Of a stretch of DNA of 64,000 bases, positions 3,673-56,031 are shown piece by piece (the first letter of the stretch is position 1; each line of letters opens with the position of its first letter). The position numbers were made by a program, and so were the translations under genes. The stretch comes from a virus (lineage: Duplodnaviria > Caudoviricetes): the IMG/VR virus record IMGVR_UViG_3300028797_000013, positions 2,912-66,911 of that record, one strand, 5' to 3'. A model generated the notes under the pieces. The model saw only the letters and a program-made list of their open reading frames with translations. It did not search any database and was not told the DNA's origin.

Positions 3673-3877
3673 CCTCCCACAAAGCGTTCCAGCAGTCAGG
3701 GCAGAGCCCAGAGATCAGGAACTCACGATCCTCGGCGCTCAGCTCAGGGAACGCATCCTGGATAAGCATTCCACTACGCCATGCGAGGACCCGCTCGGGC
3801 TGCAAGTGGTAAACCTTCTTTGTGCCGCAGCAGGCACACTTGACTTCTTTCTCCATCAGGATCACTTCATCAGGCAT
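3656..3877 (-). CDS. Small Zn-binding hypothetical protein
   Basis: AAGGAG SD before MPDEV; CxxC...DREFLISGLCPDCW motif recurrent in phages. Confidence 0.75.
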   Translation of the reverse strand: MPDEVILMEKEVKCACCGTKKVYHLQPERVLAWRSGMLIQDAFPELSAEDREFLISGLCPDCWNALWEDEDDT

Positions 3878-4046
3878 GCTTGTCACACTCCTTTCGCATT
3901 TGGTTGCCACAGTACCTGCAGTAGTTGTCATAGCGGTTCACACTACGACCACAGTGCGGGCAGCGGCGGACCGTTTCGCCTACTCCGTCACGCTTGCTAA
4001 CGTACGGGCGACCACAGGTCGGGCAGAACTTTTCGCTGGATTCCAT
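3870..4046 (-). CDS. Zinc-ribbon protein (58 aa, below ORF-track cutoff)
   Basis: Manual translation MESSEKFCPTCGRP...RCPHCG...YCRYCGNQM; GGAGGAG SD. Confidence 0.75.
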   Translation of the reverse strand: MESSEKFCPTCGRPYVSKRDGVGETVRRCPHCGRSVNRYDNYCRYCGNQMRKECDKHA

Positions 4047-12930: not shown

Positions 12931-13986
12931 CTACTTGATCGTCAGGGACGTAGTCTGATACGGTGTGACACAGGCCTTATAGGCTTCTGGGAACTCCTTG
13001 GCCAGCTTATCCATATCAGCCTTTCTACGGTTAGTCACAGTCACAGCCATGGTGTGATCACCGATAACTGCATTACAGGACTTACCGATGTAAGCAAAGA
13101 GCTGTGCGTAGAGGGCTTTCTTAACCTTCTCGAGCTGGCTGATCTTCTCTCGAATGTCGATGTAGCCCTGGATGACATTGGAGCTTTCGTCATCATTAAG
13201 CAACACGGGCGGCTCAGCAGGGTCATGCTCGGCTGCCTGCAGTTCTTCCAGGTCACCATCGGATGCTTTGGGCTCGATCCCCTTGAGAACATTGTTCTGC
13301 CAGAAGTCAGCAGCTGCGATGGTTTCCTTCTTAAAAAGCTCCTCATCAGCTGGCATGTCATTGTAGGCATAGAGCTTCTGGCCACCTACCAGGCAAGTGA
13401 TGCAGTACTGATCAAGGTGACAGATACCGCAATACCAGTTTGTCTGGCACAGATAGTAGAAGGGGAGGGGCCCTTCGCTCCAGGGCTCTTCGTTGTAGGC
13501 ACTGGTGGTCTTGATCTCCAGAATACCCGTGATCGTCCGCCGATCATCCGACAGTGTGAAGCCATCCACATTGGCGAGCATCCACGGGAACTCTTCGCTC
13601 TGGATGGTCACCGGGATGTGGATCCATTGGCGCTCATAGCGCTTGCCCCACTCTGTAGCTACGATGGTCTCCAGCAGATTGCCCCACCGCGCTGCTTCGT
13701 TCTGTGTGGGTTGCTTGTCGCTGTCGAACATGTCAAGCTTCGACATCCAGATCTTCCTGGGGCTGCTCCACGGGTTCTCGTCGAGGATCGTCGCGATGTC
13801 GGAACCACCGATGCCATGCGTCCTGGCCCGCAACCAGCCATCAGGATTCTCTTCTTGAGCTGCTGCTGAGAACAGCTTGCAACCCTTCAGCTGGCTCAGA
13901 TAGTAGACCCACTCACGGGCCTGGGACTCCGGGACGCTAGGACGCGTCCTGCAAATGATATCAAACAGTTCCTCAGGTCCCTGCAT
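12931..13986 (-). CDS. YqaJ/lambda-exonuclease family recombination nuclease
   Basis: WL..R..GIGGSD, WGNLLE, LANVDG, ILEIKT, Y..Q..WY motifs. Confidence 0.9.
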   Translation of the reverse strand: MQGPEELFDIICRTRPSVPESQAREWVYYLSQLKGCKLFSAAAQEENPDGWLRARTHGIGGSDIATILDENPWSSPRKIWMSKLDMFDSDKQPTQNEAARWGNLLETIVATEWGKRYERQWIHIPVTIQSEEFPWMLANVDGFTLSDDRRTITGILEIKTTSAYNEEPWSEGPLPFYYLCQTNWYCGICHLDQYCITCLVGGQKLYAYNDMPADEELFKKETIAAADFWQNNVLKGIEPKASDGDLEELQAAEHDPAEPPVLLNDDESSNVIQGYIDIREKISQLEKVKKALYAQLFAYIGKSCNAVIGDHTMAVTVTNRRKADMDKLAKEFPEAYKACVTPYQTTSLTIK

Positions 13987-14275
13987 TTGCAACTTCCTCC
14001 AGTTTCCGCAGGTACGCCTCAGCCATGCCGAGAGGAGCCACTGCACACCTTATCTCGAAGTCAATCTGCTGCTGTGCGGGGTTGATCGGGATGACTTCCC
14101 CAGGCTGCAGAATCGTTCTTTTCCTGCAGATATAAGCGCGCTGCAGAACATGATACTGTTCGCCATCAGGCAGTACAAGCACATCGCCAACTACAGGTGT
14201 AGGAAAGATGTTCTCAGCCGACCCAAAAGAGCACAGACCTTCCTGGCTCAGGGCGTCAACTACCGTGATAATCAT
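13973..14275 (-). CDS. Hypothetical protein
   Basis: GGAGG SD; between primase-helicase and YqaJ. Confidence 0.7.
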   Translation of the reverse strand: MIITVVDALSQEGLCSFGSAENIFPTPVVGDVLVLPDGEQYHVLQRAYICRKRTILQPGEVIPINPAQQQIDFEIRCAVAPLGMAEAYLRKLEEVANAGT

Positions 14276-18077: not shown

Positions 18078-18734
18078 TCATACGAGAAGGTCATCAAAAA
18101 CTGATACTAAGTAGCTCGCAAGGCAATCAGCCATTGTATTAGCGACTGCCCAGTCCAAGGCTACATATTCCGGCACAGCAGTGAAGCCGTGCTGCACGCG
18201 ATTGTAGTTGAAATCACGAATGATCCTTGGCATATCAGCAGGACGCCTGGCTACAGAGAAGAGCCTGTCATAGAGCTCAATCCCTGTAGAATCAGCGGTC
18301 ATAGCACGCTTTGTATTAGCCGGTGTGTAGCTGATCAAATGCCCCTTGGTCCACTGCATGAACACATTGCCAGACAACTTAGGAGAGTCGAGCAGTTTAA
18401 GCGCTCGCTGCCACATGTCCTGGTTCTTTACAGGACCAGACAGGCCCGTCCAGTTTTGTCGTGCCCATTTGTGTACCCAGTCCTTTTCAATGGTGTTGAA
18501 CATGTACTCTGAGTCAGTAATTATGCTGAGCGACTCATCCTCAGCCATATGCTCGTTGGCATACTCAAGTGCTTCAAGCAAGCCATTAAGCTCACCACGC
18601 TGGCTCGTAGATTCATGCTCAAACATTGCTTTGAACAGCACCTCGCCATCCTCTTGTAATATCCAAGCTACACCTACAGATACACAGGTAGGTTCACCAT
18701 TGCGCTTGCATGCCCCATCAGTTGCAATTAACAT
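18078..18734 (-). CDS. rnhA: Ribonuclease HI
   Basis: ATDGAC, STSQRGEL, ITDSEY, VKNQDMW, WTKGH, N..AD motifs. Confidence 0.9.
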   Translation of the reverse strand: MLIATDGACKRNGEPTCVSVGVAWILQEDGEVLFKAMFEHESTSQRGELNGLLEALEYANEHMAEDESLSIITDSEYMFNTIEKDWVHKWARQNWTGLSGPVKNQDMWQRALKLLDSPKLSGNVFMQWTKGHLISYTPANTKRAMTADSTGIELYDRLFSVARRPADMPRIIRDFNYNRVQHGFTAVPEYVALDWAVANTMADCLASYLVSVFDDLLV

Positions 18735-19213
18735 TAGTGCTCTCCTAAACAAATAAATCGAGTACCCATGTAGAAGGTGAGGTCACCTACATAGTATATC
18801 ATATTCTTACCATCTACTGAGTGCTGTGTCAGCCAGTCCTTAGAAACCGTCACGTCCTTAAGAATACACACACTCGTCATTATAAAGCGTCTAGGACTAT
18901 CTGATGTGAGCATGCTCTCAAACTTAGGGGAAACCTTTAATCGGTTGCACTCCTCTAAAAAGCTTGTGTGTTTGCAGAAGTCCGACATACTCATGGTTTC
19001 CACACTGATTAAATCAAACCGGTACCACATTTTTGCGTCTTCTTTTGTCTCTGGCTGTTTAGGTTCCTGAGTAGTGTCTAAGAGCTCAGTAACAGATTGC
19101 AGCAGTGCTGTGACCTCATCAGCAGTAGCAGCAAACTGATTAACTTGCTCTGTCAGCTTTGCTATGAGCTGCTCGATACGTTCCAGCTTTGCTTGTACCT
19201 CAGCTTCGTTCAT
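18734..19213 (-). CDS. Hypothetical protein with N-terminal coiled coil
   Basis: Heptad pattern; coupled to ligase stop. Confidence 0.7.
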   Translation of the reverse strand: MNEAEVQAKLERIEQLIAKLTEQVNQFAATADEVTALLQSVTELLDTTQEPKQPETKEDAKMWYRFDLISVETMSMSDFCKHTSFLEECNRLKVSPKFESMLTSDSPRRFIMTSVCILKDVTVSKDWLTQHSVDGKNMIYYVGDLTFYMGTRFICLGEH

Positions 19214-33815: not shown

Positions 33816-36800
33816 TTAACCTCTACGCATTGATTCAGCCTGCCGAATTGAATAGAGCTTGCGCTCAAGCGTCCGAAGGCCTGCATCATCAGCAATCAAT
33901 GTACCCACATAGATCGGGGTTCTACCGTCAGTTCCATCAGCACTTGCCTGCGCAGTAGCTACTGCAGGAAGTACTCTCTCAAGGACACCTCGCGTCACTG
34001 CATCTATAAGGCCAGTCATATCAGTGCCACTACCACGAGTACCGCTAGGAGTAACTATGCCTCCATTTACCAGACCAAGAGCAGCACGAAGACCCTGTGC
34101 ACTATCAGGCATGAAGCTATCCAGTACAGGACTCATCGACAACGATACGGTGCCCCCAGCAAAAGCCTTAACCGTAGGACGATTGCCTACATACTTTTGC
34201 ACTGTTTTTGTATCATCAGCATTAAGAATCTGTGTACCGGCCGGTAGATCATAGAGACCAGCTTCGAGCAGCTTCGTATCACCATTTGGCATAATGGCCA
34301 TTTCCTTGCCAAGTTCACCAGCAAGGATCGGGAGACTCGATGCCATAGGATCTACTGTGCCACCAGCTGCAAACTGAGGCAAATTACTGACAGTGGACTG
34401 CTTGCCGGTAACGCCATCAATCTTTATATACTTAATAAGCTTACCATCAGATGAATATTCACCATAATAAGTATTACCTTGTTTATCAGTGCCTTTGTAA
34501 ACAACGTTATTTTTCGTAGAGCCAATACCAAGGAATCCACCTGAACGGCCAGCGCTAGCCTGCAAGCTCTCTAGCTGCTGCATACTAGTCATAGCCCTAG
34601 TGACAGCATTAGCAATACTCGTTGCCATCTCATCAGCAGTACCAGAGACTCCTCCAGCAATCTCACCAAGCACAGAACTAAGATTGGTGAAGCCAGTTGA
34701 TGCAGTATTCTTGATGTCATACATCTTGGTCTCACAGTTTTTATCTACCTGCGAGAGTGCTGTCTGAAGCTCATCAGGTAATGCACTGAAGGGGACCAAC
34801 GCCTCGCGGTCAATAGTTTCAGGAATGTCTGCTCCATCCACATAACCAGCAATAGCAAGCATGCCTTCATTTACATCAAGACCCAGTGTAGCTAGCGCAT
34901 CTTTGGTAGGCTGATCAATAGACTCCCAGGAAGCGATCCAGCCATCGGTAGTCTCTACAAGCCATTTGCCGATCTTACGATTGATCTCAAGGAGCTGTTC
35001 ATCAGCTACAATGCCTGCTTCTTCAAGGTACTGCTTAACAGTATCAGGCAACTGATCCCAGAGCTCAGGCTTATTTACAAAGACTGCTACAATATCACCG
35101 GCTCCCTCTTCCATAACCTGAGAGAGATCCACAATTACCTGATTACCAGCCTCTGTGGTTTTTACACCAAGTGCTTCGAGAGCAGTCACAGTTTCAGTAG
35201 TGAGGGACTCCCATTTCTCTTTACTGATGAGGGTAAAGCCGTTTGTAATTGCCTCACCGGTATTGCTAATAATCATCTGGAATTCTTCACCTGCACCAGT
35301 GAATGCAATACCAATGGATCTAAAAGCCGTAAGTATTTCTTCTGTCAGATCTTCTTCTTTGATAGGAGAGGGGACTACTACAGCATTAGCCCAATCAATA
35401 AGGTTATCCTGGATTGTTCCACCCTCTTTATCTACCAAAGCTGCGATACTATAGAACTGGTTCTTAACAATGTCAGAGACACCAGTCCAATCTAGCGCAT
35501 CAAGTGCAGACTTAAGTGTAGCATCACCACTAAGCACAGCTTCATTTGTGATCTTAAGGAAGCCATCCTCAGTAACAGTACCAATGTCTGCAATGATCTT
35601 TTCCATGTTCTCGCTCATCTGAACGCCGATGCTATCAGACAGCTTAAACATAGCTGCAGTCATGCTCTCTTTGACTTTATCAAAATTACCAAACTCAATC
35701 TCGCTGGTGTCAAAGTTCAAACTGATGCTGTATTCGCCAAGTTGATCGATGATTGCCTGACTAAAGTGCTCAGCACTGAGTGCAATATCACGTTCATTAC
35801 CAGTACGCGCTTCATTATGGTTATACATGAACGAAACAGTACCATTGCTGTTTACCTGGATGCCAGCCTCTGCAAGGATCGAAGCCTCATCAGTGGTTAC
35901 GCTAAGGGCCCCTACATCAAAGGACTGCCCGTCAAGGTCAATAATGACACCGTGTGCATCTACTGTAATACCACGCAGTGCATCAATCAACGCATCCTGA
36001 TCGGTACCCACTGTAATATAGTCAATAGCCGTAGGTCCTTGAAGCGCTGTTTCATACATGCTGCTGCCGGAGCCAAGGGTGATGCCAGCAGCTGCCAACT
36101 GGGCAAGCATTGTAGGCATGAGGCCTTCAAGAACTGCACCAGTAAGGTACTGTGCAGTGTTACCCGCAAGTACATCAATGTTGCCACCTACTGCACCATA
36201 AGTAGCTGTACTAATCCCAAGTTCAGTAAGCTTAGCTTGCTCGTAGGCATCCCAGATATCAAGCTGCTGCTTCATAAGAGCTACCGCCATGCCAGGATTC
36301 TCATCAAGAGTATAGCCCGTAATTTCACGATAGCTACTATCGCTTTCAGCAAGCAAAGCAAGATAACTTTGAATATTATCGTAAGCAGTGATTGCACGAG
36401 CATCATAGCCCATGACATCTACAAGGGCCTGCTTAAGATAATCGTTTCCATCAATGATGCCCCGCAGGGTCTCAGTAAAGTCGCCCTCTTGAGCGCCGCC
36501 GACATACATTGCCTGGATCATTGCTCGCAGTGCTTCAGTATCATCACCAAAGTAGCGAACAGCGCTGCCTGTAGCATCAAGCACACGGACATACTCTTTG
36601 CCATTTACAGCAATCTGCTCACCGAGCTGCAGACCTGCGTAGTCTTCACCGAGAATCTTTTTGATTGTTTCGAGGTCGGCTGCAGCACTTTCAAGCGGCA
36701 AAACCATCTCAGAAGAGACCCAGCTACCAATGCCATTTTGTCCCTGGTGAGCTTGTGCAATAGATGTTGCATCAATAGCACCCATTGCAGCTGCTATACG

Positions 36801-39800
36801 AACAGCTACCATTGCTTCATCACCTTGGGCCATGCCAAGAGAATTCAAGCTACGCTTAATATCTGTATCGAACCATTCAGCAAAGCCATACCCTTTACCA
36901 GTGCTACCAATATACATATCCTTAGTATAGCCACTGCCATAAAGGATGTTCTCATAGGCATTGTTACCTCGAATATTATCAGTAGGAGTGGATGTAGCAA
37001 AGCGGAATGCCTGGTATAGACTGTTTGTGCTTGCAAGCTCTACGACCTTTGCAAGGTCCTCAGCAGAAACAATACCTCCATTATCTGCTTTGATTGCATC
37101 AAGCAATGTTGCAGTGTCAGTGATGCGTGCTGCTACGACGAGGTCTGCAATCTCCTGCTCTGCGTATGTACCACTTTCACGAAGCAGCTTCTCAAACTCA
37201 GTGGTATCATATGGCGAAGCAACACCGAGACCAAATATGCCTCCGTGCTCTCTACCGGCGAGCATACTACTCCAGGTATTAACGGCTTTAGAATACTCAT
37301 CATTACCAAAGAGAGTATTCATACCAAGCGAAGTAGCTACTGCAGAAAGCCCACCAATAATGAGCCCAGGAATGCCCCCCACTACTCCGCTAATTGCCAT
37401 CATCAGAACATTGATGATACCATTGACAAACACAGACTGCCCAACGGCCTGTGCAGCACCTTCATAGATGTTATCTGCAACAAGTTCACCAGTATTGAGG
37501 CCTGCTGCTTTAATAAGTTCAGTAACCTCATCAGAAAGGAGACTTTCTACGAACAGGCCTGCAAGGTCCTCATTCTTGATGTCTTGCGTGCTCTGCCTGA
37601 TACCAGATATAACAATATCAGCAATATCAAAGATGCTATATGATGCAATATTGAACTTCAGCAACTTCCTACCGAAAGATTCGAAGGATTCATCGATTGC
37701 AGCTGCCGCTCTGTTTACTTGTTTTGCAGCATACTCACCTGCATAATATACGTCATCAGCGACGTCATAGATGACGGCCCCCTTCTGGAAATCAGCGAAG
37801 GAATCACCAAGAACATCCTTCAGATGCTTTAAGGCATCATGCACACCGTCTCCTGTCTGTCGTGCAAGCCTAAAAGTATCAATTGCATCTGCAATCTGCT
37901 CCGCAACGTCTGTCTTAAAGGCACCTTCTCTTGCTAAACGTGCATATCCATCAAGAAGCCCTTGCCAATCAGTCGTGATTGTTTCACCAATGAGCTTCCA
38001 CTCACCAGTCGCCTGATCAATATAATAAGCTACTTTATTCGAGCCACTTGAAAGAACCTTGCCAAAGGACTCAAAGTCAAGAGTCTGTGCACTACGTAAG
38101 CCTTCACGTGTCTTGATAATGAGTGAATTAAAGAAGCGTGTACGGAACGTATCTAAGTCAGCGCTTGCAATCTTAAACTCATTACTTGCTGCGCCATATG
38201 CTTGCTTAAAGCTCTTTGCAAGATCACTACTTTGATCAGGTACAGATTTCCAAAGCCTGAGTGCCTCATCAGCCTTAGCCCCAGCAACCTGCAACTTACC
38301 AAAGGCTTCAGCATAATCATTGATAGCATCCATGAGCTCAGGCACAGCCTTAAGGTCAAGGCGTCTGGTATTCGAGAAGCCGAAACCAAAGTACTGGAAA
38401 AACTTTTCATAAGCAGCCTCACCAAAAGAGCGTGCTCTGCCCATGAATCTACTAATGATGCTCGGATTAAAAGCCGCATCCTCAACACCGTCAAAGAGCT
38501 CGATGACTTCATCAGCCGTACCTGCCGCAATACGCCGGAAAGTATCTACAACATCATCGCTGACTCCATAGATGGACTTAATAAATGAATCAGGGAAATA
38601 ATCAAGTAAATCATTAGCACCAGCACCAGTGAAGAGAAGTTTTGCAGCATCATCAAAGATGTCTTCGCCAAGTGTACTTCCGCCAAGCCATTTTACATAA
38701 CGGTTAAGCCACTCCCATTGGTCAGCCACTCCAGAAGCCGTATAAGTAGCGTCGCCAATGACGTCAGCCGCTGCAGCAGCAACGCGGGCTGCTTCACTAA
38801 AGCCTTCCGCAGCATCATCAGCCAAACCAGTGATATTCCTAAAGTAACTCTCTGCATAGTCAAGGGCTTCGTCAAGCGTAGCTGCCTGATATTTGAACGT
38901 ACCTTGTGTAACTTCAAAGCCACCTTCTATACCAGTAAGTCGCACACTTTCACCAAAAAGATCTACTTTACCATTCTTAGCAAGCTCTTCTACTGCACTA
39001 TCTACAATCTGAGCACGTGTAGTAATATTTAGCTCAGCAATAGTGGCAATACGGTGTTGCTGCTGCAGCTCATCAATCGCTTGAGCTAATGTATGGCGCA
39101 TATCGCTTAGCTGTTGAATTGTGCGCTGAAAGCTTTTAACTTTAACAGGATCTGCGAGCCCTTCAAGTGCTTTTTCGAGTTCTGCTAGTTCATTGCCAGT
39201 CTGAATATAGCTTGTTTTGAGTGCTTCAATACGCGGAACAAGCGTATTCCTGAGTACTTTAGCTGTTGCAGGTTCAAGGTCATTAAGTGCATACAGAAGT
39301 TTCTTTGCTGTATCAGTAGTATTGGTTGTTACCTTTAGTAACTCTTCTGCTGCCTCAGCAAGATGGTTACCCCTAAGTGTTTTTGCAGCAGCTTGCAGCT
39401 TGTTAAGGGTACCCGAAACTTCAGTAAGGCCTGCTGCTGTTTCTGCAATTTTAGCTACTGTTCCATCTTTAATACGCTTCCAGACTTCATAAGTCATCGC
39501 AATGTCATTATCAGCAAGGTGTGCAAGATCATCAAGGGTACCGACAGAGATCTCATAGGCCTCTACCAGTTTGATATCCTTACCGAACTGAATGAACTTA
39601 TTGACTTCTTCATTAAAGAGGCGCATGACATCAGCCCCAGGCAGGAAATTCTTCCCGTCAGGCATCCATGCATTCAGTATATCAAGGTCATAACCACCAA
39701 TGTTTGATGCATTGTAACCAGAAATAAGCGTCCTATCTGCTTGCGTAAACTGATAGACTTCACGCATGACGGTATCAATGTCATTCGCTGCATCCATCAT

Positions 39801-42800
39801 ATCTACTGTGACATTTGAGAAAGCCTTCTCAAAGTCTGCGTTGATGCCACGCATATAGTCAAGCAGTGCTCTGTTTTCACTTCCCCAGCTTACCAGCCAA
39901 GAACGCTGTTCACCAGCAGTGTTGATAGCACTAATCTGAACAGGACGTGGCTGGATGGCACCAGTAGCTGTCTGAATCGGGAAGCCACTAGCCTCAATGT
40001 CAACAAAGGACATAATCTGAGGAAGTGACTGCTTTGCAGCGCGCAGGGTGGCATCAAGTGGGGCATAATTGATTTCCTGCAATAAACCTGTAAAGAGTCC
40101 TCTGATTTCTTTTTCTACACTATCCGTAACCTGAATGATACCATCGTCAATATCCTTAAGAAGCTTGTTGCCCCAAATGCTCAGATGCTCTTGAATATTA
40201 GCAATATGGACAGGAAGCTCAATCTTAAAAGCTTCTGCACTTGACAGGATACGTGTCTCTTCACCAGTGGCTTTCATAAGCTTATTAAGCTTATCAATCT
40301 GCTGGCCCATCTGGTATGCAGCAGAATCTGCCTGAAGATGTAAAAGCTCAATGAGGCGCTTATAGCTCCGAGACAGAGTAGCTACATCGTAAGCAGTAAC
40401 TGCTAAGCCATTTTCGATCTGGAAATTCAGTCTTGTTGCAGCATCTATGGTAGTCCGAATCGTCCTAGGCAGTTCGCTGGTAAGCATCGGAACTTCTGCA
40501 AGAAGCTCTGTTGCTTCAGCAAGCTTACCAAGAGCTTCACCGAACTCTGTGATATCCTGACCGGCTTTAAGGAACTGCCCATCAAGCTCTACAGGGACCT
40601 CTGTGCTACTTGCAAGCATCCTTGCAGTTGCACTGATCTTCTGCATCCCTTCTCTAAAAGTAGCTGCTGCGGCAGTTGCATCTTCACCTGCCTTGACTGC
40701 TTGGTTATAGTTTCTTACAAGCTTATCAATCTGGCTACGAACAGGAGCATGGGTAAAGAGCCCGCGTGTCTCGATTCCTTTAAGAGAATCAGGCCCAAAC
40801 AAGCTGTCAAACCAGCCTGTGATATTACGTGAGAAATCATTGTAGCTGCGCAGGACAGGCACAAAGTCCATCTCAGAAAAGACTTCCTGACCATCGCGTA
40901 CTACACTGAAATATGCCTTAGACAAATCACCAGGTACTTGCTTATTTGCAACGAGCAGTGCGATTGCCTCATTCATTGCATAGAAGTAATCAGCAAGTCC
41001 AGTGACTGCTTTAATATCTACACCAGAATAGTCAACGATGAACTCAGACATCATCTTCCTAAAGTTCTTCGTATCAAAGGCGCCCTGCAGATCTGTAAAA
41101 GCTGGCCTAATCACTTCTTCAAAGTAAAGCTTTGTAAGTGTTTCCTCATCAAGCCCCTTAAGGATATCACCTCTAAGGCTTCGATAAAGCTCAACAGCAT
41201 CAGTAGACAGATAGCGCCCTTCAAGTTTGCTTACTAGATCTGTGCGCGTATTACCACGCATAAGAGCTGCTTCAACATTCTGAGAAATAACATTATTAAG
41301 CCGACGGAAATCAAAGTCACGATTGAGAATAGAGATTAACTCACGACGATTATTAGCACCAAAAGCTTCAAGATGCGGAATAAACTCATAGTACCAAGAA
41401 GGTTTGTTTGCCGCAAGCAAAGCATTCGAGGTAATAACTTTGATACCATTAACCTCATCTACAACAAACTGAGAAAGGGTATCCACCACACTACCAGTAG
41501 TGACTTTGAAGTCAACACCAATCTCAGAGAGAAGCTGTACATTATCATTAAGTGTTTCATTGAGTGCCTTAAAGAATGCCACAGAGGCATCATTCTGAAC
41601 AATGATCGGTTGATTAGGCAAGGCTGCATGACCCGTACCATGCACGATACCAACTGCTTTGTCCATAGCATCCAAGGCAAGTGCATAGCGCATAACAGGC
41701 TCAAGGGTAACACCGAGTGCAGCAGTCATTCTGGTGAAGGCACTTTCTACACCGCTGATTCGCCCAGTGATCTTAAGCAGATCACCAAAGATCCTGTCAG
41801 TGAGCATAGGAATGCTACCACTGAACGCATCCAAGCCATTAGTAAGAACTTGGAACTTTGTACCAGTAGCTACCAGCTGATCAGCAGACACTCCAATAGC
41901 ATCAAGTGCCTTAGAAAGCTCAGGAGAAAGGCGACTCTTAAGCAATCCTCGCAATTCTTCTACTGCATCGTCAAGACCAGAAAGGTGCGGTGTGGCTGCT
42001 TCCAGTGCAGCAGTAAACTTATTATAGCTCTCAAGCGTGCCGCGTGCAACTTCAGGAAGCGTTTTCAGCTGAGCAATGCTTGAACTACCCAGAATATCTG
42101 CAAGCTCTTTCTGATATACTGCGAGAGTATACTCAAGTTCACGGATATGCCTTGTTGATTCGTCAATATCATCAAAAAGCTTTTGTGCATATTTAGTACC
42201 ACCAACAGTACTGGTATCGACTAGCTTGAAGGCTTCCTGTAACTCTACAAGCTCCTGTTTTGCAGCTTTAATAAGACTGTTCTGTGTACGGATATCAGCC
42301 TGAATGTCTGCAAGTGCGCGTGTCTCACGTATCTCAAGCTCAGCCTGCGCACGTGCAACGCGTGATTGCATCTCAGTTGCCTGCAAGGCTGCTTGCCTAC
42401 GTGCTTGATCAATCGTGGCCTGCACTTGGCTAACATTCTTAACCACTTCTTCATTTGTTTTCTCAATATACTGCATGCTAGCTTCAAGCTTACGCCCAAT
42501 AGAGTTGCTAATAGCTACTGCATTTGCTTCAGCAATGGCCTCTGGGTTGAGCTTACGCATATCCGCAGCAATATCACGAAGAAGCTGATCTGCATGATCT
42601 ACGCTGGCAATAATCTTATTCTGTGCATCAAGCTCCTGCGGAGAAATGCCCACGCGGCGTGCTGTCTCAATGGTAGTTCCTGCAACATTCCTAGAAACAC
42701 CATAGCTACTGACAGTATCAAGTGCTTTACGAATTTCTTTGGAGTTAGCATCAAAGAGGCGCAAGAACTTTACACCAAGTGCATCAATGTCAGCGGTAAG

Positions 42801-45470
42801 TTCTTTAGCCCGAAGCTTATATGCTGCAGACAGCTCCTCAAGAAGTTTGTATTCTGCATCAGCCTGTGCAATAGCTGCCAGGTTATAGCCCCTAGTCCCA
42901 TCCGCAAGGCGCTTAAGCGGACCAGAGAAAGCAGTATTAAAAGCCTCAGTTACTCGCTCAGCTTGATCAGTAAGTGCTTTTGCAAGGTCCTCAGGAGTGA
43001 GGCTAGAAAGATCCATGGCTACGCTGCCTGCCTGCAGTTGCTTCAGGTGCTTATCAACGGCAGTCAAGCGCTCAGTAATATTCTTATACTCACCCTGTGT
43101 AAGATCGAACTGCCTAGTAGCTGCAAGCAGCTGCTGTCGCTCAAGCTGCAGGGAGTTTGCGAGCAGCTCCTGTGCACGGTGCCAATCTACTGCACCATCT
43201 GCAAGCAGCGGAACAGCCTTATTTGCATAAGAAGCTATTTCACCAAGCTGCCCAAAGTTCTTTGAAAAGAGTTCAAGTTGTGCATCCAGTGTAGTGCTAA
43301 GACGCTTCAGCTCGTCAAGCGACTCAGGCGTATTTGCTTTGCTGCGTTTCTGAATAGCCACCTCAAGGCGATCCATTGTACCATTGAGTGCTTTAAGCTC
43401 AGTGGAAACAACATCTTGAAGCTCATCTAGCTTCTTAAGAAGAGCAGCTTCGTCAGAGAAAGCATCTACCTTACCGGTCTTTGTAGACGGAGTCGCATCA
43501 CCATACCTAGGCTGGTCTGCTTGCTGCTTTGCGAATGCTTTGCCAAGACCAAGTACCAGACCCATGATGGCACCAGGGAGCATATGGCGCCAGAAGTCAG
43601 CATCAGCTGCCCAGGTATCATCCCAAATGCTATCCCCATAGACATCACCAAAGTTGAAGGTAGGCTTCTCAGGAAGGTCGATGCTAGAAGGGAACGGGAA
43701 GTTTGCTTCTAGCAGGTCAATGAGGTCTGTAAAATCATCGAGGATGTCATCAAGCTGACCACTTGTCGGCTCGTCCTCATTCGGGACGTCGTAAACCTCA
43801 TCAAAAGCGGCAACCCACTCTTTGGTAGTAGTATCTTTACTTCCACCGGACTTTTTCTTATCATCATCGTCCTTCTGCTTCAGAGACACTTCAGAAGGAT
43901 CTCCGAGGTTCTTATAAGACTCCTCATACTTTGCACGATAGGCCTCTACTGCAGCATTATAATCCTCCATCTGCGCAAGGTACTCTTCATACGCAGTCTG
44001 CCAGTTATTATTGAGCCCAGAAGAACCGTTTTCAGTGCTCAGCCCAGCAAAGCTGTTGTTGATCATTCCAAAGAGACTTGCAGCAGCTACGAGGTAAGCA
44101 ATGAGTGTTGCAACAGATGCAGTAAGTGCCACAACACCAGCATTAGCACTCATGCTTGCAGGCAGAATTGCAAGAAGCCCAGAAGCCGCCTGATAGCCAG
44201 CAACACCAGCACTTGCAAGTGCTTGGCCAAGGAGGGACACAAACTGTGTTGCTTTGTAAGCAATGTAGAGAGAGGCAATGCCTTTGCCTACTACTCCAGT
44301 ACTAATTCCCATCTTATCCAGTGCGTCAATAACACCATTGATGGTTTTTGCCAAAGCAGTCAATGCGACAAGGCCAACATTGATAGAAGCACTGAATGAT
44401 TTTCCAATGACAGACAAGACAGGAGATGCTGCATGATACAGCTCTATAAAAGCATCCTTGAGCTGCAGGAGGTTACCAACTGTAGCAAGGATGTCATTGC
44501 CAAGTTTACCAGTCGGATCTATACGTAGGATGACATCATTAAAGAGGCCAGGGGTCCCCTTTTCAGTGACAATATTTCGCCAGTCATCGAGAGTATCCCT
44601 GATCGTGCGGGTTGCATCAGTAAGCCTATCATAAAGCGGATCAAAGGCCTCTCTTGCAATGATCTTGGCATCATCAATGATGGTGTCCTTCATACCTGCA
44701 AAGGTCTCTGCGATACGGTCAGCGGCACCCTGATATCGCTTCTCCAAGCCATTAAGGATTGCGACTACTGCCTTATCAGCATCGACCCAGTATTTACCTA
44801 TGTTACTAATCTGGGCGCCAGTAAGACCAAGCTCATCCTGCAAAATATCATAGATAGGAATATTTGCATTGGCCAACTGACGAATTTCTTCATTAGCAAT
44901 ACGACCCTTAGTCAGCATCTGACCAAGAGCAAAGACAATGCGTTCAAGGTTTTCAGAGGTGGCACCTGTGGCAGCAGCCGCATCAGTAAGCACTGTGAGT
45001 ACCGACTGCGTCTGACCCATTGCAACGCCTACGGACTGCATGTACTTAGACAAGCTAAGCACCTGGTCAGTATTAAACGGTGTACGCGCTGCAAACTCAT
45101 TCACTTCACGGAGGTAGGCAGTAACCTTAGCTGCTGCCTCCTCCGTGCCGACTGCAGAGTCTACGAAGTACTCGAGTGAGATACTGGCCTGCTCCATAGC
45201 AGAGGAGAACTGCAGAGCAGCTGAAGCAGCTCCAGTCAAAGCATTCATAATGGCATAGAAGCCCTGAGAGATAAGAATACCCGAGACCACTCGCTTTGTA
45301 TCTTTTAAGCTACCGGTAAGATCTTTCCAGCGCTTATCAAAAGCTGTAGCCTGGGACTGCATATCTTCGAGTGCCTTGACAGTGAGTCGCTGTGTACTCG
45401 AAATATCCTTTGAAAATTGTTTAGTATCGACATTTAAGCCAAGTGTTGCGGTTGAAAACACAGTAGCCAT
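33816..45470 (-). CDS. Giant tape measure protein (3884 aa) with internal DEDDh exonuclease domain
   Basis: Tape-measure N domain (AARTPF...LGQM..KGRI..EEIRQLA); follows the chaperone frameshift pair; C-terminal FAAGG...AGE.G.E; exonuclease motifs at aa 1824-1989. Confidence 0.92.
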   Translation of the reverse strand: MATVFSTATLGLNVDTKQFSKDISSTQRLTVKALEDMQSQATAFDKRWKDLTGSLKDTKRVVSGILISQGFYAIMNALTGAASAALQFSSAMEQASISLEYFVDSAVGTEEAAAKVTAYLREVNEFAARTPFNTDQVLSLSKYMQSVGVAMGQTQSVLTVLTDAAAATGATSENLERIVFALGQMLTKGRIANEEIRQLANANIPIYDILQDELGLTGAQISNIGKYWVDADKAVVAILNGLEKRYQGAADRIAETFAGMKDTIIDDAKIIAREAFDPLYDRLTDATRTIRDTLDDWRNIVTEKGTPGLFNDVILRIDPTGKLGNDILATVGNLLQLKDAFIELYHAASPVLSVIGKSFSASINVGLVALTALAKTINGVIDALDKMGISTGVVGKGIASLYIAYKATQFVSLLGQALASAGVAGYQAASGLLAILPASMSANAGVVALTASVATLIAYLVAAASLFGMINNSFAGLSTENGSSGLNNNWQTAYEEYLAQMEDYNAAVEAYRAKYEESYKNLGDPSEVSLKQKDDDDKKKSGGSKDTTTKEWVAAFDEVYDVPNEDEPTSGQLDDILDDFTDLIDLLEANFPFPSSIDLPEKPTFNFGDVYGDSIWDDTWAADADFWRHMLPGAIMGLVLGLGKAFAKQQADQPRYGDATPSTKTGKVDAFSDEAALLKKLDELQDVVSTELKALNGTMDRLEVAIQKRSKANTPESLDELKRLSTTLDAQLELFSKNFGQLGEIASYANKAVPLLADGAVDWHRAQELLANSLQLERQQLLAATRQFDLTQGEYKNITERLTAVDKHLKQLQAGSVAMDLSSLTPEDLAKALTDQAERVTEAFNTAFSGPLKRLADGTRGYNLAAIAQADAEYKLLEELSAAYKLRAKELTADIDALGVKFLRLFDANSKEIRKALDTVSSYGVSRNVAGTTIETARRVGISPQELDAQNKIIASVDHADQLLRDIAADMRKLNPEAIAEANAVAISNSIGRKLEASMQYIEKTNEEVVKNVSQVQATIDQARRQAALQATEMQSRVARAQAELEIRETRALADIQADIRTQNSLIKAAKQELVELQEAFKLVDTSTVGGTKYAQKLFDDIDESTRHIRELEYTLAVYQKELADILGSSSIAQLKTLPEVARGTLESYNKFTAALEAATPHLSGLDDAVEELRGLLKSRLSPELSKALDAIGVSADQLVATGTKFQVLTNGLDAFSGSIPMLTDRIFGDLLKITGRISGVESAFTRMTAALGVTLEPVMRYALALDAMDKAVGIVHGTGHAALPNQPIIVQNDASVAFFKALNETLNDNVQLLSEIGVDFKVTTGSVVDTLSQFVVDEVNGIKVITSNALLAANKPSWYYEFIPHLEAFGANNRRELISILNRDFDFRRLNNVISQNVEAALMRGNTRTDLVSKLEGRYLSTDAVELYRSLRGDILKGLDEETLTKLYFEEVIRPAFTDLQGAFDTKNFRKMMSEFIVDYSGVDIKAVTGLADYFYAMNEAIALLVANKQVPGDLSKAYFSVVRDGQEVFSEMDFVPVLRSYNDFSRNITGWFDSLFGPDSLKGIETRGLFTHAPVRSQIDKLVRNYNQAVKAGEDATAAAATFREGMQKISATARMLASSTEVPVELDGQFLKAGQDITEFGEALGKLAEATELLAEVPMLTSELPRTIRTTIDAATRLNFQIENGLAVTAYDVATLSRSYKRLIELLHLQADSAAYQMGQQIDKLNKLMKATGEETRILSSAEAFKIELPVHIANIQEHLSIWGNKLLKDIDDGIIQVTDSVEKEIRGLFTGLLQEINYAPLDATLRAAKQSLPQIMSFVDIEASGFPIQTATGAIQPRPVQISAINTAGEQRSWLVSWGSENRALLDYMRGINADFEKAFSNVTVDMMDAANDIDTVMREVYQFTQADRTLISGYNASNIGGYDLDILNAWMPDGKNFLPGADVMRLFNEEVNKFIQFGKDIKLVEAYEISVGTLDDLAHLADNDIAMTYEVWKRIKDGTVAKIAETAAGLTEVSGTLNKLQAAAKTLRGNHLAEAAEELLKVTTNTTDTAKKLLYALNDLEPATAKVLRNTLVPRIEALKTSYIQTGNELAELEKALEGLADPVKVKSFQRTIQQLSDMRHTLAQAIDELQQQHRIATIAELNITTRAQIVDSAVEELAKNGKVDLFGESVRLTGIEGGFEVTQGTFKYQAATLDEALDYAESYFRNITGLADDAAEGFSEAARVAAAAADVIGDATYTASGVADQWEWLNRYVKWLGGSTLGEDIFDDAAKLLFTGAGANDLLDYFPDSFIKSIYGVSDDVVDTFRRIAAGTADEVIELFDGVEDAAFNPSIISRFMGRARSFGEAAYEKFFQYFGFGFSNTRRLDLKAVPELMDAINDYAEAFGKLQVAGAKADEALRLWKSVPDQSSDLAKSFKQAYGAASNEFKIASADLDTFRTRFFNSLIIKTREGLRSAQTLDFESFGKVLSSGSNKVAYYIDQATGEWKLIGETITTDWQGLLDGYARLAREGAFKTDVAEQIADAIDTFRLARQTGDGVHDALKHLKDVLGDSFADFQKGAVIYDVADDVYYAGEYAAKQVNRAAAAIDESFESFGRKLLKFNIASYSIFDIADIVISGIRQSTQDIKNEDLAGLFVESLLSDEVTELIKAAGLNTGELVADNIYEGAAQAVGQSVFVNGIINVLMMAISGVVGGIPGLIIGGLSAVATSLGMNTLFGNDEYSKAVNTWSSMLAGREHGGIFGLGVASPYDTTEFEKLLRESGTYAEQEIADLVVAARITDTATLLDAIKADNGGIVSAEDLAKVVELASTNSLYQAFRFATSTPTDNIRGNNAYENILYGSGYTKDMYIGSTGKGYGFAEWFDTDIKRSLNSLGMAQGDEAMVAVRIAAAMGAIDATSIAQAHQGQNGIGSWVSSEMVLPLESAAADLETIKKILGEDYAGLQLGEQIAVNGKEYVRVLDATGSAVRYFGDDTEALRAMIQAMYVGGAQEGDFTETLRGIIDGNDYLKQALVDVMGYDARAITAYDNIQSYLALLAESDSSYREITGYTLDENPGMAVALMKQQLDIWDAYEQAKLTELGISTATYGAVGGNIDVLAGNTAQYLTGAVLEGLMPTMLAQLAAAGITLGSGSSMYETALQGPTAIDYITVGTDQDALIDALRGITVDAHGVIIDLDGQSFDVGALSVTTDEASILAEAGIQVNSNGTVSFMYNHNEARTGNERDIALSAEHFSQAIIDQLGEYSISLNFDTSEIEFGNFDKVKESMTAAMFKLSDSIGVQMSENMEKIIADIGTVTEDGFLKITNEAVLSGDATLKSALDALDWTGVSDIVKNQFYSIAALVDKEGGTIQDNLIDWANAVVVPSPIKEEDLTEEILTAFRSIGIAFTGAGEEFQMIISNTGEAITNGFTLISKEKWESLTTETVTALEALGVKTTEAGNQVIVDLSQVMEEGAGDIVAVFVNKPELWDQLPDTVKQYLEEAGIVADEQLLEINRKIGKWLVETTDGWIASWESIDQPTKDALATLGLDVNEGMLAIAGYVDGADIPETIDREALVPFSALPDELQTALSQVDKNCETKMYDIKNTASTGFTNLSSVLGEIAGGVSGTADEMATSIANAVTRAMTSMQQLESLQASAGRSGGFLGIGSTKNNVVYKGTDKQGNTYYGEYSSDGKLIKYIKIDGVTGKQSTVSNLPQFAAGGTVDPMASSLPILAGELGKEMAIMPNGDTKLLEAGLYDLPAGTQILNADDTKTVQKYVGNRPTVKAFAGGTVSLSMSPVLDSFMPDSAQGLRAALGLVNGGIVTPSGTRGSGTDMTGLIDAVTRGVLERVLPAVATAQASADGTDGRTPIYVGTLIADDAGLRTLERKLYSIRQAESMRRG

Positions 45471-45481
45471 AAAAGCCCTCC

Positions 45482-46233
45482 TTATATCTCGAAGCCCACC
45501 TCTTCAACAGTATCAACTACCCTGTGAGTACTCGGACTATTTACCTTTGCATGGGCCTGACTTAACATATTAAGCTTAACGGGCGTGCTGCGCCAGAATG
45601 ACTTTTCAGACATCCGCAGCACAGTCACGCCCGTATAGAACAACATCGGCCAGTCCCAACCCTTTGTGGTTACTGCGCCGAGGGATTGAACTGCAGTACC
45701 GTTTTCTTCTCCTCCGCCGGCGGCTCCTCCTCCACCGGCTCCTCTGCGTTTTTTGGCGGGATAAGGTCACGCAGCAGTGCAACGATGATCTTTGCGTTGA
45801 TCTCGCGCAGGTTTCTGAAGGTAACGTAGCTACCCAGCTTACTCTTGGAGATGTTGTAGCCAGTGATCTCGTCATGCTGATCATACTGGGCTGCATCATG
45901 CAGGCATCCTGCCCAAAGAAGATTCAGAGTGTCTTCATGCTTGGCCTGCTTGGTATGAACCTTCTTAAGATAGTCAAGCAGGGGAGTGCCCGCGATGGTG
46001 ATCGTCTTGCCATCCACAGGCATATCACCGATACGAACCTGCGTCAGAAGCTTCTCAGGATCAACATTTTCCTGGGTCCCAAGAACCATCTGAATGACAG
46101 AATCTACACTGTCATATATCTTCTCGAGCTCACAAAAGGCATTCAGGTCATATACGAGGCGGACCTTATAGTCCTCAGCAAGCTCGATCACCACATCATC
46201 AGGCTTGAAAATAGCTGCATTTTCGTTTGCCAT
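45482..46233 (-). CDS. Tail assembly chaperone, -1 frameshift (gpGT-like) product, ~250 aa
   Basis: A AAA AAC at 45748-45754; -1 frame open to TAA 45482 and encodes DWPMLFYTG...MSEKSFWRSTP.KL. Confidence 0.8.
45670..46233 (-). CDS. Tail assembly chaperone (gpG-like)
   Basis: Between major tail protein and TMP; GGAGG SD. Confidence 0.85.
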   Translation of the reverse strand: MANENAAIFKPDDVVIELAEDYKVRLVYDLNAFCELEKIYDSVDSVIQMVLGTQENVDPEKLLTQVRIGDMPVDGKTITIAGTPLLDYLKKVHTKQAKHEDTLNLLWAGCLHDAAQYDQHDEITGYNISKSKLGSYVTFRNLREINAKIIVALLRDLIPPKNAEEPVEEEPPAEEKKTVLQFNPSAQ

Positions 46234-46318: not shown

Positions 46319-47182
46319 TTAGGACACAGTCACGCTGCAGAGCACGCGGACGCCGCCCACAGAGGCACTGACCAGAGCAGTGCCGGGAGCCACAGGCGTC
46401 AGCACTGCGGCGCTCACGCCGCTGGCATTGGTAGCCCCGCCGGTCACGGTCACGACGCTCTCATCACTGGATGCCCAGACAGGCTGAATGCCCTCGGTCA
46501 CAGGCGTGACGGTAGCACTCAGGGCACCGTCGGTACCGACAGTCAGAGACTTGGTATTCGCATCCAGCTCGATGTCGGTGATCAGCGTGCCATTGCCGCC
46601 GGTCAGCGCCAGAGACTGACTGGTGAACCAGTTGGCGATAACAGCCGCAGAGACAGACGGATCGTCAGTATCCACAGCGATACGCCACAGGTTGTCAGCG
46701 TCGCGCTTCAGGAAGTTGCCGGTGATAGTCGGCGTGTTCCAGTTGATGCTGTCAGATTTGGTCTGGTTGTTCTCGTCGGGCGGGCTGAACTTGCCCTTCA
46801 GATACCAGATCAGCCGGTCAGCACCATTGGACTTCTTCACGCTCATGCCGATCGCCACATAAGGCGGGATGGCCTCAGCGGAAGAACTCACGACGCCATT
46901 GGCATAGGTCTCGCCCAGCAGGAAGGCCCGATGCTGGGGCTTCAGGTCGGCGACATTCAGCTCCAGGGTCATGGCACCCAGCGTGTACGCAGAATCGTAC
47001 GGGCCGTCGTCAGCGAACAGGGTGTCATTGGCAGCATTGGGGCTGAAATTTGCCGTGATCGCACCGGCAATGCGAACCGGGGCGTTGTAGGAGAAGGTCC
47101 CGGCCTCAGCATCATCGGTGAGCATTTCGGCGTAGTGCAGGTTGGTAAGACCGATGGCCACGCCTTTGCCTTTCATTGCCAT
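46319..47182 (-). CDS. Major tail protein (phi13-like) with C-terminal Ig-like domain
   Basis: GLTNLHYA, LFADDG, W.LKGKF; LTVG...LSATVTP...VWASSDESVVTV Big_2-like domain. Confidence 0.88.
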   Translation of the reverse strand: MAMKGKGVAIGLTNLHYAEMLTDDAEAGTFSYNAPVRIAGAITANFSPNAANDTLFADDGPYDSAYTLGAMTLELNVADLKPQHRAFLLGETYANGVVSSSAEAIPPYVAIGMSVKKSNGADRLIWYLKGKFSPPDENNQTKSDSINWNTPTITGNFLKRDADNLWRIAVDTDDPSVSAAVIANWFTSQSLALTGGNGTLITDIELDANTKSLTVGTDGALSATVTPVTEGIQPVWASSDESVVTVTGGATNASGVSAAVLTPVAPGTALVSASVGGVRVLCSVTVS

Positions 47183-53593: not shown

Positions 53594-55495
53594 TTACCGG
53601 TATCTACCGGACATGTTTTTATGCCAGTACGAGCCAGTAGAGCCCGTGCGTACAGCCACAGCTGGTTCTCCGCGATCTACACGCACCTTATACTCTCTGG
53701 CGCGAGGCGGAGGTGAATAGTTGGTATTAGACGGCTTGAAATAGGAAAATGCACCAGAGAAACCATCTACAAGGTCATCCTTGATGCCATTCGGGAAGGC
53801 ACTAAGCTGTGCAAAGAAATCCGTAACGTTTCTACATGTGCTAACAAGGAATACGCAGCCAGTTTGGCAGGCCGCTGCAGCCGGTCGTGCTCTTTCTGCT
53901 TTACTACCTGATGGCTTAACACCCGCAAAGTCAAAGCCTTGGAGGATATAGCGCGCATACCGCTCTGTATTTGCCATACCAGCACTACCCGGCTCTTCCT
54001 CCATGCGTATTGCACAACTATGACCATCAGCTACTGCAGTCTGATAAACAATCTTTTCAGTATCACCGGGTGCCTTCTGGAACTGCAGAATGTCTGCAAT
54101 ATAGTAGTTTCCTTGATAGAACCCCAGCTTAAAACCCACCGTGTAGTCAGGATTGCGCGTATTATTCTTATTTTTGCGATGTTTCGGGTCTACAGCAGCA
54201 AGATCCCAAAACCTAACCCACCGCACTCCTGACGGCACCTCAAGCACATTGATGGAAATGATCCACGAAGTGTCAAAAAGGTCTCCGGTAGGCCTGATTT
54301 CCCAGTTTCCGTTCTCAAGCTGCTCCCTAGTGATAGGATCAAGCTCTGCAAGAGCCTCCAGATACGATTCACGGTCCAAATGTGGGTTATCTTTGAGCCC
54401 AGAAGGCAAGAAAAATCGTTTCTTATTGCCCTCTTCATCAAGATTATCTACAAAGAACCGATCGTAATAATAGTCACCATAGGTGCCACCAGGGTTAGCT
54501 GTTGCCCTAAATCGGAGCGGAAAATCAAGGTCTTTTGTCTTACGAAGACGAGAAAAGAGGTATCTATAGCTCTCAGGACTGATATGAGTGCACTCGTCCA
54601 TCCCGATGAAGCTAAATTCAGCACCTTGATACCTCAAATGATCGTCTTTGTTATCCAGATAACCGAAAGTAAGTGTTGCACCAGACTCTTTGAAGGTGTA
54701 ACGCTTGTCTTTGTCGGCCCAATGGACTTCTCCAGAGTCCAAATAAGGTCCCAACCACTCCTTGGACATAGGAATCAGCGCCCCAGGAAGCATTAGGTCA
54801 GAGAATGTCTTACGAAACAGGATCGCGGCGTAGCCTTTACGATCTACATACTGCAACGCGGCAGCAAGCAGAAACACAGAGTTATGTGTAGGGATCATAT
54901 CCTTGGTCACAGAATACATATGGGACATGGAATCTACTGATATGCACTGGACAGGGACCGGATCAACCTTCTCCACAGCCTTTATATGATGCTTGGTTAC
55001 GACCCCGTCTTTAACACTCTGGATAAATGTCACCCTGTGGAGCTTCTCATAGACCTCCCACATCTTCTCAGTTGTGATGTGGAGCTCCTCATAGCGATCC
55101 GGGCGTGTCGAGATGACCCACTCGTGGTCTGCGTCAGCCACAACCGAAGCCTCATTCAAGAAGTCTACCCTGTAGCACTCGTGGTCAGTGTACACAGGCC
55201 CCTTTGCAGTCACCTCACAAGGCCTTCCAAAGTCATCATAGACCAGATCACCTACCTGGATAGTCTCCATGGTCTGCATGCCGCGCTCTACTGTAGGTAT
55301 CGGAGTATCTAAAGCCAGGGCTTTACCACCGCCTGCAGCTCCACCATAGAGAAGCTCCTTTACATTGTCCATAAGAAGAGCCGCTGTCTGCTTCGGAGTA
55401 GGCTGAATCGGGATATACTTCGTCCATTTGGGCGTCAGGGCCATCTGAAGCCTAGACAGGTCTTGATCGCTGAGCTTATCAAAACCTACAGCCAT
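53594..55495 (-). CDS. terL: Terminase large subunit, intein-containing
   Basis: YGGAAGGGK Walker A; FIGMDE Walker B; ATANPGG; RFWDLAA; DD.VD nuclease; start moved to MAVGF. Confidence 0.93.
   Translation of the reverse strand: MAVGFDKLSDQDLSRLQMALTPKWTKYIPIQPTPKQTAALLMDNVKELLYGGAAGGGKALALDTPIPTVERGMQTMETIQVGDLVYDDFGRPCEVTAKGPVYTDHECYRVDFLNEASVVADADHEWVISTRPDRYEELHITTEKMWEVYEKLHRVTFIQSVKDGVVTKHHIKAVEKVDPVPVQCISVDSMSHMYSVTKDMIPTHNSVFLLAAALQYVDRKGYAAILFRKTFSDLMLPGALIPMSKEWLGPYLDSGEVHWADKDKRYTFKESGATLTFGYLDNKDDHLRYQGAEFSFIGMDECTHISPESYRYLFSRLRKTKDLDFPLRFRATANPGGTYGDYYYDRFFVDNLDEEGNKKRFFLPSGLKDNPHLDRESYLEALAELDPITREQLENGNWEIRPTGDLFDTSWIISINVLEVPSGVRWVRFWDLAAVDPKHRKNKNNTRNPDYTVGFKLGFYQGNYYIADILQFQKAPGDTEKIVYQTAVADGHSCAIRMEEEPGSAGMANTERYARYILQGFDFAGVKPSGSKAERARPAAAACQTGCVFLVSTCRNVTDFFAQLSAFPNGIKDDLVDGFSGAFSYFKPSNTNYSPPPRAREYKVRVDRGEPAVAVRTGSTGSYWHKNMSGRYR
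54881..55321 (-). mobile_element. Class-3-type mini-intein (147 aa, no homing endonuclease) in TerL
   Basis: Starts ALALDTPIPT right after the Walker A Lys; block B ADADHEW; block F VQCISVD; ends IPTHN/S. Confidence 0.9.
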
Positions 55496-56031
55496 CAGAA
55501 TCCCTCCTCCAATGAAGCGTCTACACCTATCCACTGGATGATTCGTTGTGCACGCTCTTTATCATAGAACGGCTGCACCAAGAACCACTTAAAGATAGGC
55601 TTATTCCCGCGCCCACGGTTACACTTCCTGCAGGCAGGCCCAATGTTATGTCGCGTGGTTTTGCCTCCTCGTGATAACGGTACGAAGTGCTCTCTATCGA
55701 ACCGGGCGTCTTTGGCACGCCCCTCGGATCTACCACAGTAGCAGCAGACACCTCTGAAATGCAACAAAGCAGCCTGCCAGTCCTCGTTCGTATAGTCTAC
55801 TGCCTCCATGCCGCGCAGCTTCTCTTTGCTCACAAACTTACCTGTTTTAGGTGCCTGCCGCTTAGCCCTACGCTTAATCAATGTACACTCCTTACACTGT
55901 CCAGTCGGCTGGTTCGTATAGGCCGCCCTATAGAACTCACTGATCGGGAGCTCACGACCACAGCAGCTACACACCTGGGTAGGGATCTCGAAGTGCAGCC
56001 TCACATTAGATGTCAATGCTGTCTGGCTCAC
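55495..56031 (-). CDS. HNH endonuclease with N-terminal zinc finger
   Basis: CCYCG...DREHFVPLSRGG....N.GPACRKCN; between terS and terL. Confidence 0.88.
   Translation of the reverse strand: MSQTALTSNVRLHFEIPTQVCSCCGRELPISEFYRAAYTNQPTGQCKECTLIKRRAKRQAPKTGKFVSKEKLRGMEAVDYTNEDWQAALLHFRGVCCYCGRSEGRAKDARFDREHFVPLSRGGKTTRHNIGPACRKCNRGRGNKPIFKWFLVQPFYDKERAQRIIQWIGVDASLEEGF

Follow-up and report, generated by a model that had tools for sequence, protein, structure and literature searches.

The tape measure protein (TMP) of a siphovirus fills the tail tube, exits ahead of the DNA and helps to form a channel across the envelope; in the siphoviruses that have been studied, it is a trimer. TMPs are usually viewed as rulers, sometimes bearing a cell-wall enzyme, and the TMP-RNA polymerase fusion of phage P23-45 added nucleic-acid enzymes to this picture. 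The TMP of this Thermus phage, gp96, is a protein of 5,002 residues that includes a virion RNA polymerase; this polymerase has been proposed to transcribe phage DNA during its passage through the TMP pore (PMC10770324). The injection of multi-enzyme "polyvalent" proteins is also an established idea, and the survey devoted to them mentions neither TMPs nor DnaQ (PMC5512222). The subject here is a TMP gene in a stretch of 64,000 nucleotides, termed the window, whose positions are used throughout. The window covers positions 2,912 to 66,911 of IMG/VR virus record IMGVR_UViG_3300028797_000013 (Duplodnaviria; Caudoviricetes). At its centre, the encoded protein carries a predicted DEDDh 3'-5' exonuclease domain.

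Literature searches on DEDDh or DnaQ domains in TMPs found no paper describing such a domain. The original prediction, made from the letters of the window, held that no nuclease cargo had been described in a TMP. This holds for the DEDDh/DnaQ literature but needs qualifying, because P23-45 gp96 already combines a TMP with a nucleic-acid enzyme (PMC10770324). An exonuclease in the centre of 90 of 121 related TMP clusters would extend the idea to DNA-end chemistry during genome entry. To our knowledge, almost nothing is known about the genome-entry step. The arrangement raises the physical question of how a mid-chain globular enzyme passes through a tube of ~4 nm, and offers an experimental handle in five invariant catalytic residues and in natural relatives whose TMP lacks the domain.

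The exonuclease domain and its predicted fold

The gene, the domain and the three motifs that define its active site are as follows.

33816..45470, minus strand: TMP gene, 3,884 residues in a single unbroken open reading frame (ORF) of 11,655 nt (Pfam TMP_3, PHROG tape measure families)
39462..40025, minus strand: DEDDh 3'-5' exonuclease domain, residues ~1816-2003 (model range 26-213 aligned to 8h18, 9ii8 and 2gui; hidden Markov model (HMM) envelope)
39984..40010, minus strand: ExoI, SFVDIEASG from residue 1821, with D1824 and E1826, on predicted strand beta1 (motif, model)
39687..39719, minus strand: ExoII, GYNASNIGGYD from residue 1918, with G1918, N1920 and D1928 (motif)
39504..39524, minus strand: ExoIII, AHLADND from residue 1983, with H1984 and D1989 in an H-x4-D arrangement (motif)

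Stop codons abound on the plus strand of 39470-40020, and the exonuclease feature therefore lies on the minus strand. There, the ORF holds all three Exo motifs in the order and with the residue numbers (D1824, E1826, D1928, H1984, and D1989) given in the original prediction. The motif set together with the matches described below is far beyond chance. Translation of the domain from an internal start at Met1820 was considered and rejected, as no Shine-Dalgarno sequence lies upstream and the methionine is not conserved in diverse homologues.

The best sequence-profile match of the domain is PHROG 192, annotated as "DNA polymerase exonuclease subunit", with E=2.4e-6 and the entire domain covered. 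Eight diverse members of the TMP family described in the next section were also compared with profiles, and three of them match NCBIfam NF005570 "3'-5' exonuclease" (best E=1.4e-6). In a profile built from these eight, ExoII and ExoIII align to the Staphylococcus aureus DinG exonuclease with E=0.003, which places D1928 with the "AHNV-DFD" of DinG and H1984 and D1989 with its "AHRADEDA". A phmmer search of the single domain against PDB sequences gave nothing meaningful, and tblastn with the domain as query gave no match among 50,697 phage records. In IMG/VR, the domain retrieved no relative, and the TMP N-terminus retrieved one fragment only (L009). Taken alone, the sequence evidence for DEDDh identity is modest.

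It is the predicted structure that settles the identity. Modelling by AlphaFold had been suggested along with the original prediction, and the AlphaFold2 model of residues 1791-2030, built from an 11-sequence alignment, has an RNase H-like DEDD fold. Its mean predicted local distance difference test score (pLDDT) is 85.6 and its predicted template modelling score (pTM) is 0.80. The top Foldseek matches in the PDB are all DEDDh exonucleases, with probability 1.0. Alignment by VIA-align to the Cas2-linked DnaQ domain 8h18 gives Z 16.6 and a root-mean-square deviation (rmsd) of 2.7 Å over 160 of 172 residues, followed by the exonucleases of DinG (Z 16.1), Pol III epsilon (15.4), and PolC (14.9), and then by RNase T, ExoI, ExoX, and TREX1/2 with Z of ~13-14. 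A larger model of 836 residues, searched independently of Foldseek against 48,161 representative chains, again returned DEDD(h) exonucleases, with a top Z of 15.4. These are the only class among the best 50 rows of each of the two independent structure searches.

The modelled active site is arranged as in canonical members. D1824 and E1826 lie on the first strand (model residues 30-37), D1928 starts a helix (model residues 137-145), and H1984 and D1989 lie where the last long helix begins. Residues ~1816-2003 are thus predicted to form an RNase H-like alpha/beta domain of DEDDh fold.

The tape measure protein and its family

The ORF product is a true siphovirus TMP. Its N-terminus scores 57.7 bits against Pfam PF20155 TMP_3 (cut-off 41), and the protein matches three PHROG tape-measure families (1942, 2335, and 9959). 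The gene sits after the major tail protein and chaperone genes and before the tail-tip genes, in the same order on the related contigs L001-L007. The motifs, the fold matches, the TMP_3 match, and the gene slot all agree with the proposal that an intact DEDDh/DnaQ domain lies inside a TMP.

The domain is carried by a family of such proteins. With the domain as query, phmmer gave ten matches among 1.84 billion representative proteins, all of them giant proteins of 2,708-6,359 residues. In the eight longer than 4,000 residues the domain is located near residues 1,760-2,190; the 2,708-residue match, from a gene that begins close to a contig end, has it at 887-1,096. Neither this search nor a profile search of 132-452-residue proteins (E<=0.001) detected a stand-alone homologue, within the limits of their sensitivity. 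Where homologous genes have context, six of seven are in the position that follows the major tail protein and chaperone genes, and the seventh, on L006, starts at a contig end.

A search with the TMP N-terminus returned giant TMPs in 170 clusters, most of them on contigs of up to 65-71 kb. A wider survey of TMPs had been proposed as a check on the original prediction, and it covered 121 related TMP clusters from independent metagenomes. The domain HMM is positive in 90 of these, always at residues ~1,715-2,200. Residues D1824, E1826, G1918, N1920, D1928, D1947, H1984, and D1989 are conserved in all 90, with domain identity to that of the window down to 21%. Conservation of the active-site residues at such low identity argues for purifying selection and for catalytic activity. 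On this comparison of sequences, the DEDDh domain of the TMP is most probably catalytically active.

D1947 (39630-39632) is an extra invariant aspartate, found in 90 of 90 where the last beta strand ends, beside the five canonical DEDDh residues.

The remaining 31 TMPs lack the domain (P0024 and others among P0065-P0122). Their homology to the TMP of the window is confined to ~650 N-terminal and ~700 C-terminal residues, and their centres of ~1,500-2,500 residues are not detectably homologous to it. A Pfam scan of three domain-less TMPs found TMP_3 alone and nothing in the centres. As only the terminal parts are common to these relatives, the centre behaves as an exchangeable module, and from sequence it looks like an exchangeable cassette.

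Peptidase_M23 (PF01551) occurs in five TMPs of the family, together with the exonuclease in P0018, P0085, and P0108 and without it in P0097 and P0104. The TMP of the window has no Pfam match to Peptidase_M23. The Big Fantastic Virus Database (BFVD) entry A0A8S5T4I4 (Siphoviridae sp. ctn8e14) gives a structural alignment across the central model of 836 residues, with E=1.5e-6. Its UniProt label is "Tape measure protein N-terminal domain-containing protein" only; the family is therefore already public, with the exonuclease unannotated.

Other features of the TMP are listed below.

44679..45218, minus strand: TMP_3 N-terminal domain, residues 85-264, the best-conserved part of the family (Pfam and conservation)
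44058..44180, minus strand: first hydrophobic, membrane-segment-like cluster, residues 431-471 (Kyte-Doolittle scan)
40026..41888, minus strand: conserved central block, residues 1195-1815, alpha/beta and helical (moderate-confidence model; conservation)
37326..37448, minus strand: second hydrophobic, membrane-segment-like cluster, residues 2675-2715 (Kyte-Doolittle scan)
33819..36173, minus strand: C-terminal TMP region, residues ~3100-3884, common also to relatives without the exonuclease (family comparison)

At 0.15 nm per residue, the 3,884 residues correspond to a tail of ~580 nm if the whole chain acts as the ruler. The hydrophobic segments expected of a TMP are present, and by hydropathy the two clusters bracket the TMP centre including the exonuclease. 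Conservation along the chain is 0.5-0.8 at the N-terminus, 0.4-0.5 at the C-terminus, and 0.25-0.38 at residues 1200-2000, with its minimum at residues 2000-2400, just past the exonuclease. The guanine-cytosine (GC) content near the exonuclease domain equals that of the rest of the gene.

The central block directly upstream of the exonuclease has six invariant polar residues, Q1292, D1294, D1320, K1322, D1385, and S1422, in homologues that are 22-40% identical. It has no significant PDB profile match and no usable ESM Atlas match, and it was unmatched in structure searches of the larger model, which the exonuclease domain dominated. The block may form another module, enzymatic or DNA-binding, that partners the exonuclease. 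An RNA polymerase of the P23-45 gp96 type was considered for this TMP and rejected, as D-x-D-x-D occurs nowhere in the 3,884 residues. The conserved "NRDFDF" at residues 1383-1388 lacks the third aspartate of DxDxD, and only its first aspartate is invariant.

The source genome is that of an uncultured phage, a complete siphovirus of 66.9 kb; its 66,911-bp IMG/VR record is rated 100% complete, with terminal repeats. All runs containing the entire stretch come from one bovine gut metagenome sample, and the habitat given here is that of this source sample alone. No RNA run among the sequencing runs listed contains the stretch. The late module is ordered as HNH endonuclease, large terminase, portal, major head protein, connectors, major tail protein, chaperone-position gene, the TMP ORF, tail-tip genes, and endolysin. 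The two genes that precede the TMP are as follows.

46319..47182, minus strand: major tail protein (phrog_88, E=1.4e-53)
45670..46233, minus strand: gene in the position of the tail assembly chaperone, immediately upstream of the TMP gene (phrog_2115; layout shared by L001, L003, and L007)

The large terminase gene (TerL, 53594-56031, minus strand) has PHROG matches in two pieces, N-terminal residues 51-202 and C-terminal residues 219-604. An HNH/endonuclease VII gene lies immediately upstream of it, and this pairing hints at cos-type packaging. A replication module is separately encoded, with a family A DNA polymerase, primase-helicase, RecE-like exonuclease, RNase H, ligase, and helicase. 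As the phage has its own replication module, the TMP exonuclease is not a replicative proofreader. Within this module, the RecE-like 5'-3' recombination exonuclease (12931-14046, minus strand) and RNase H (18078-18752, minus strand) matter for the question whether end processing by the TMP exonuclease would be redundant or complementary.

Possible roles during infection

Delivery into the cytoplasm, the substrate, and the role, whether genome-end processing or anti-defence, are what we infer from the domain and its TMP context. The reading that we favour is that the TMP bears an active virion exonuclease that is ejected, is held at the channel mouth, and trims the ends of the incoming genome; for the whole of it, our confidence is evenly balanced. 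The exonuclease would be a virion component, probably in three copies per particle if this TMP is trimeric. A folded domain of ~21 kDa on each of three chains fits the ~4 nm lumen poorly; the exonuclease would therefore be stored partly unfolded in the tail tube and would refold once ejected. It would be expelled from the tube ahead of the DNA and then be tethered at the cytoplasmic mouth of the TMP channel, where it may act on DNA 3' ends. A ready-made nuclease would in this way probably be delivered to the site of DNA entry.

DNA is the presumed substrate because the nearest structural relatives (epsilon, PolC, DinG, and Cas2-DnaQ) are DNA exonucleases. As the tethered copies would be few and genome termini are the most readily available, the two ends of the entering phage genome, the first and the last, would be the likeliest substrate. 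Possible outcomes are resection of terminal repeats, exposing complementary strands for circularisation, or removal of a 3' tail. Such a role in end processing would parallel that of the P23-45 TMP-fused RNA polymerase, which is proposed to act on the entering genome (PMC10770324).

Several points weigh against this reading. The Pfam profile PF00929 RNase_T aligns over positions 3-163 of 164 with E=0.019, but at 16 bits against a gathering cut-off of 24; among the eight diverse family members, three match RNase_T at E<=1 (best 0.015). The TMP domain is thus a divergent subfamily outside the curated PF00929, and its placement in the superfamily is by fold and motifs, not by score. Its absence from 31 of the 121 related TMPs shows that it is not essential to the tail type. 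The true genome ends present a further difficulty, since the "DTR" (direct terminal repeat) in the metagenome record may merely reflect a circular assembly. The HNH gene beside TerL hints at cos ends, and a 3'-5' exonuclease could damage such overhangs. Finally, the arrival of the TMP centre in the cytoplasm is a step that we infer, catalytic activity is deduced from conserved residues, and both concern an uncultured phage.

The main rival to end processing is an anti-defence cargo. The ejected exonuclease would destroy immune nucleic acids with free 3' ends before phage genes are expressed, and the targets envisaged are retron or reverse-transcriptase-made single-stranded DNA, small guide DNAs or RNAs, and linear oligonucleotide signals. 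We regard this role as possible but rather unlikely. The accessory and modular nature of the domain, with 90 TMPs having it, 31 lacking it, and the whole centre swapped, is a pattern typical of conflict-related genes, and the structural neighbours include defence-linked DEDDh enzymes (Cas2-DEDDh, 8h18/8fyc; CBASS Cap18, 7t2s). For polyvalent proteins, the idea that multi-enzyme proteins are injected is established, but the paper that treats them is silent on TMPs and DnaQ (PMC5512222). Around three copies per virion, each in a ~430-kDa protein with membrane-like segments, are a poor match for dispersed targets, and cyclic nucleotide signals lack a free 3' end.

The domain might instead have a structural role, either binding the 3' end of the packaged genome in the tail or adding length or bulk to the ruler, with catalysis irrelevant. 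The leading genome end of siphoviruses sits in the upper tail, and non-catalytic DEDDh folds such as Exuperantia, Maelstrom, and ESRP1 are among the structural matches. However, folds of the latter kind usually lose the catalytic residues, whereas all five are kept here in 90 of 90 at identities down to 21%, and the domain is found in the middle of the TMP and not at its head-proximal N-terminus. This role is accordingly improbable.

A nuclease for host takeover, which would degrade host DNA or RNA from nicks or ends for an early shutdown, is highly doubtful. Phage nucleases that degrade host nucleic acids are common, and this enzyme would be present before transcription starts, but bulk degradation would need more than three tethered molecules, and the phage encodes nucleases for later use (RecE-like exonuclease, RNase H, and HNH endonuclease). 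Although the source is a metagenome assembly, an artefact in the form of an assembly chimera, a doubt raised with the original prediction, or of a fused gene call is effectively refuted by the 90 independent homologues of the same architecture (domain at residues ~1715-2200, in protein clusters from many independent samples and assemblers), by the same gene neighbourhood on contigs L001-L007, and by 11.6 kb of uniform GC with no stops and no Shine-Dalgarno sequence before Met1820.

Processing of genome ends by a tethered exonuclease remains our preferred role. In a broader and tentative form, a widespread family of animal-gut siphoviruses may thread a competent DNA exonuclease through the tail and refold it at the cytoplasmic end of the channel. 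There, the enzyme would perform the first enzymatic act of the infection, either genome-end processing or removal of defence nucleic acids, before phage transcription, and the TMP centre would be a cassette for enzyme cargo.

Comparison with known systems

The nearest precedent for the TMP exonuclease is the P23-45 TMP-RNA polymerase fusion. By its published description, gp96 is likewise the giant TMP of a long-tailed siphovirus and bears a nucleic-acid enzyme. The enzyme of gp96 is an N-terminal two-barrel RNA polymerase, whereas the present TMP has a central exonuclease and no DxDxD motif. TMPs that degrade the cell wall by a lytic transglycosylase or M23 peptidase, such as T5 pb2, are similar in that the TMP carries an enzymatic module ejected at infection. 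Their target is the peptidoglycan of the envelope, whereas a DEDDh exonuclease requires nucleic acid.

As an enzyme, the domain resembles the DnaQ-like DEDDh exonucleases, compared here through Streptococcus thermophilus Cas2-DnaQ (8h18/8h2f), S. aureus DinG (8zef/9ii8), Escherichia coli Pol III epsilon (1j53/2gui), and PolC (9qpc). It is predicted to share their fold (Z 13-16.6, rmsd 2.6-3.3 Å, ~160 residues), and it has the same D-x-E, D, and H-x4-D set in equal order and on matching secondary-structure elements. It differs in its identity of 15-20%, in its position mid-chain in a virion protein of ~3,900 residues, and in the extra invariant D1947. The stand-alone DnaQ-like exonucleases of phages (PHROG 192), which provide its best profile match, are free replication proteins, whereas this domain is part of a structural gene. 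Enzyme-bearing TMPs, with peptidoglycan hydrolases or the P23-45 RNA polymerase, and DEDDh exonucleases are each known already; what appears to be new is a DEDDh domain in a TMP.

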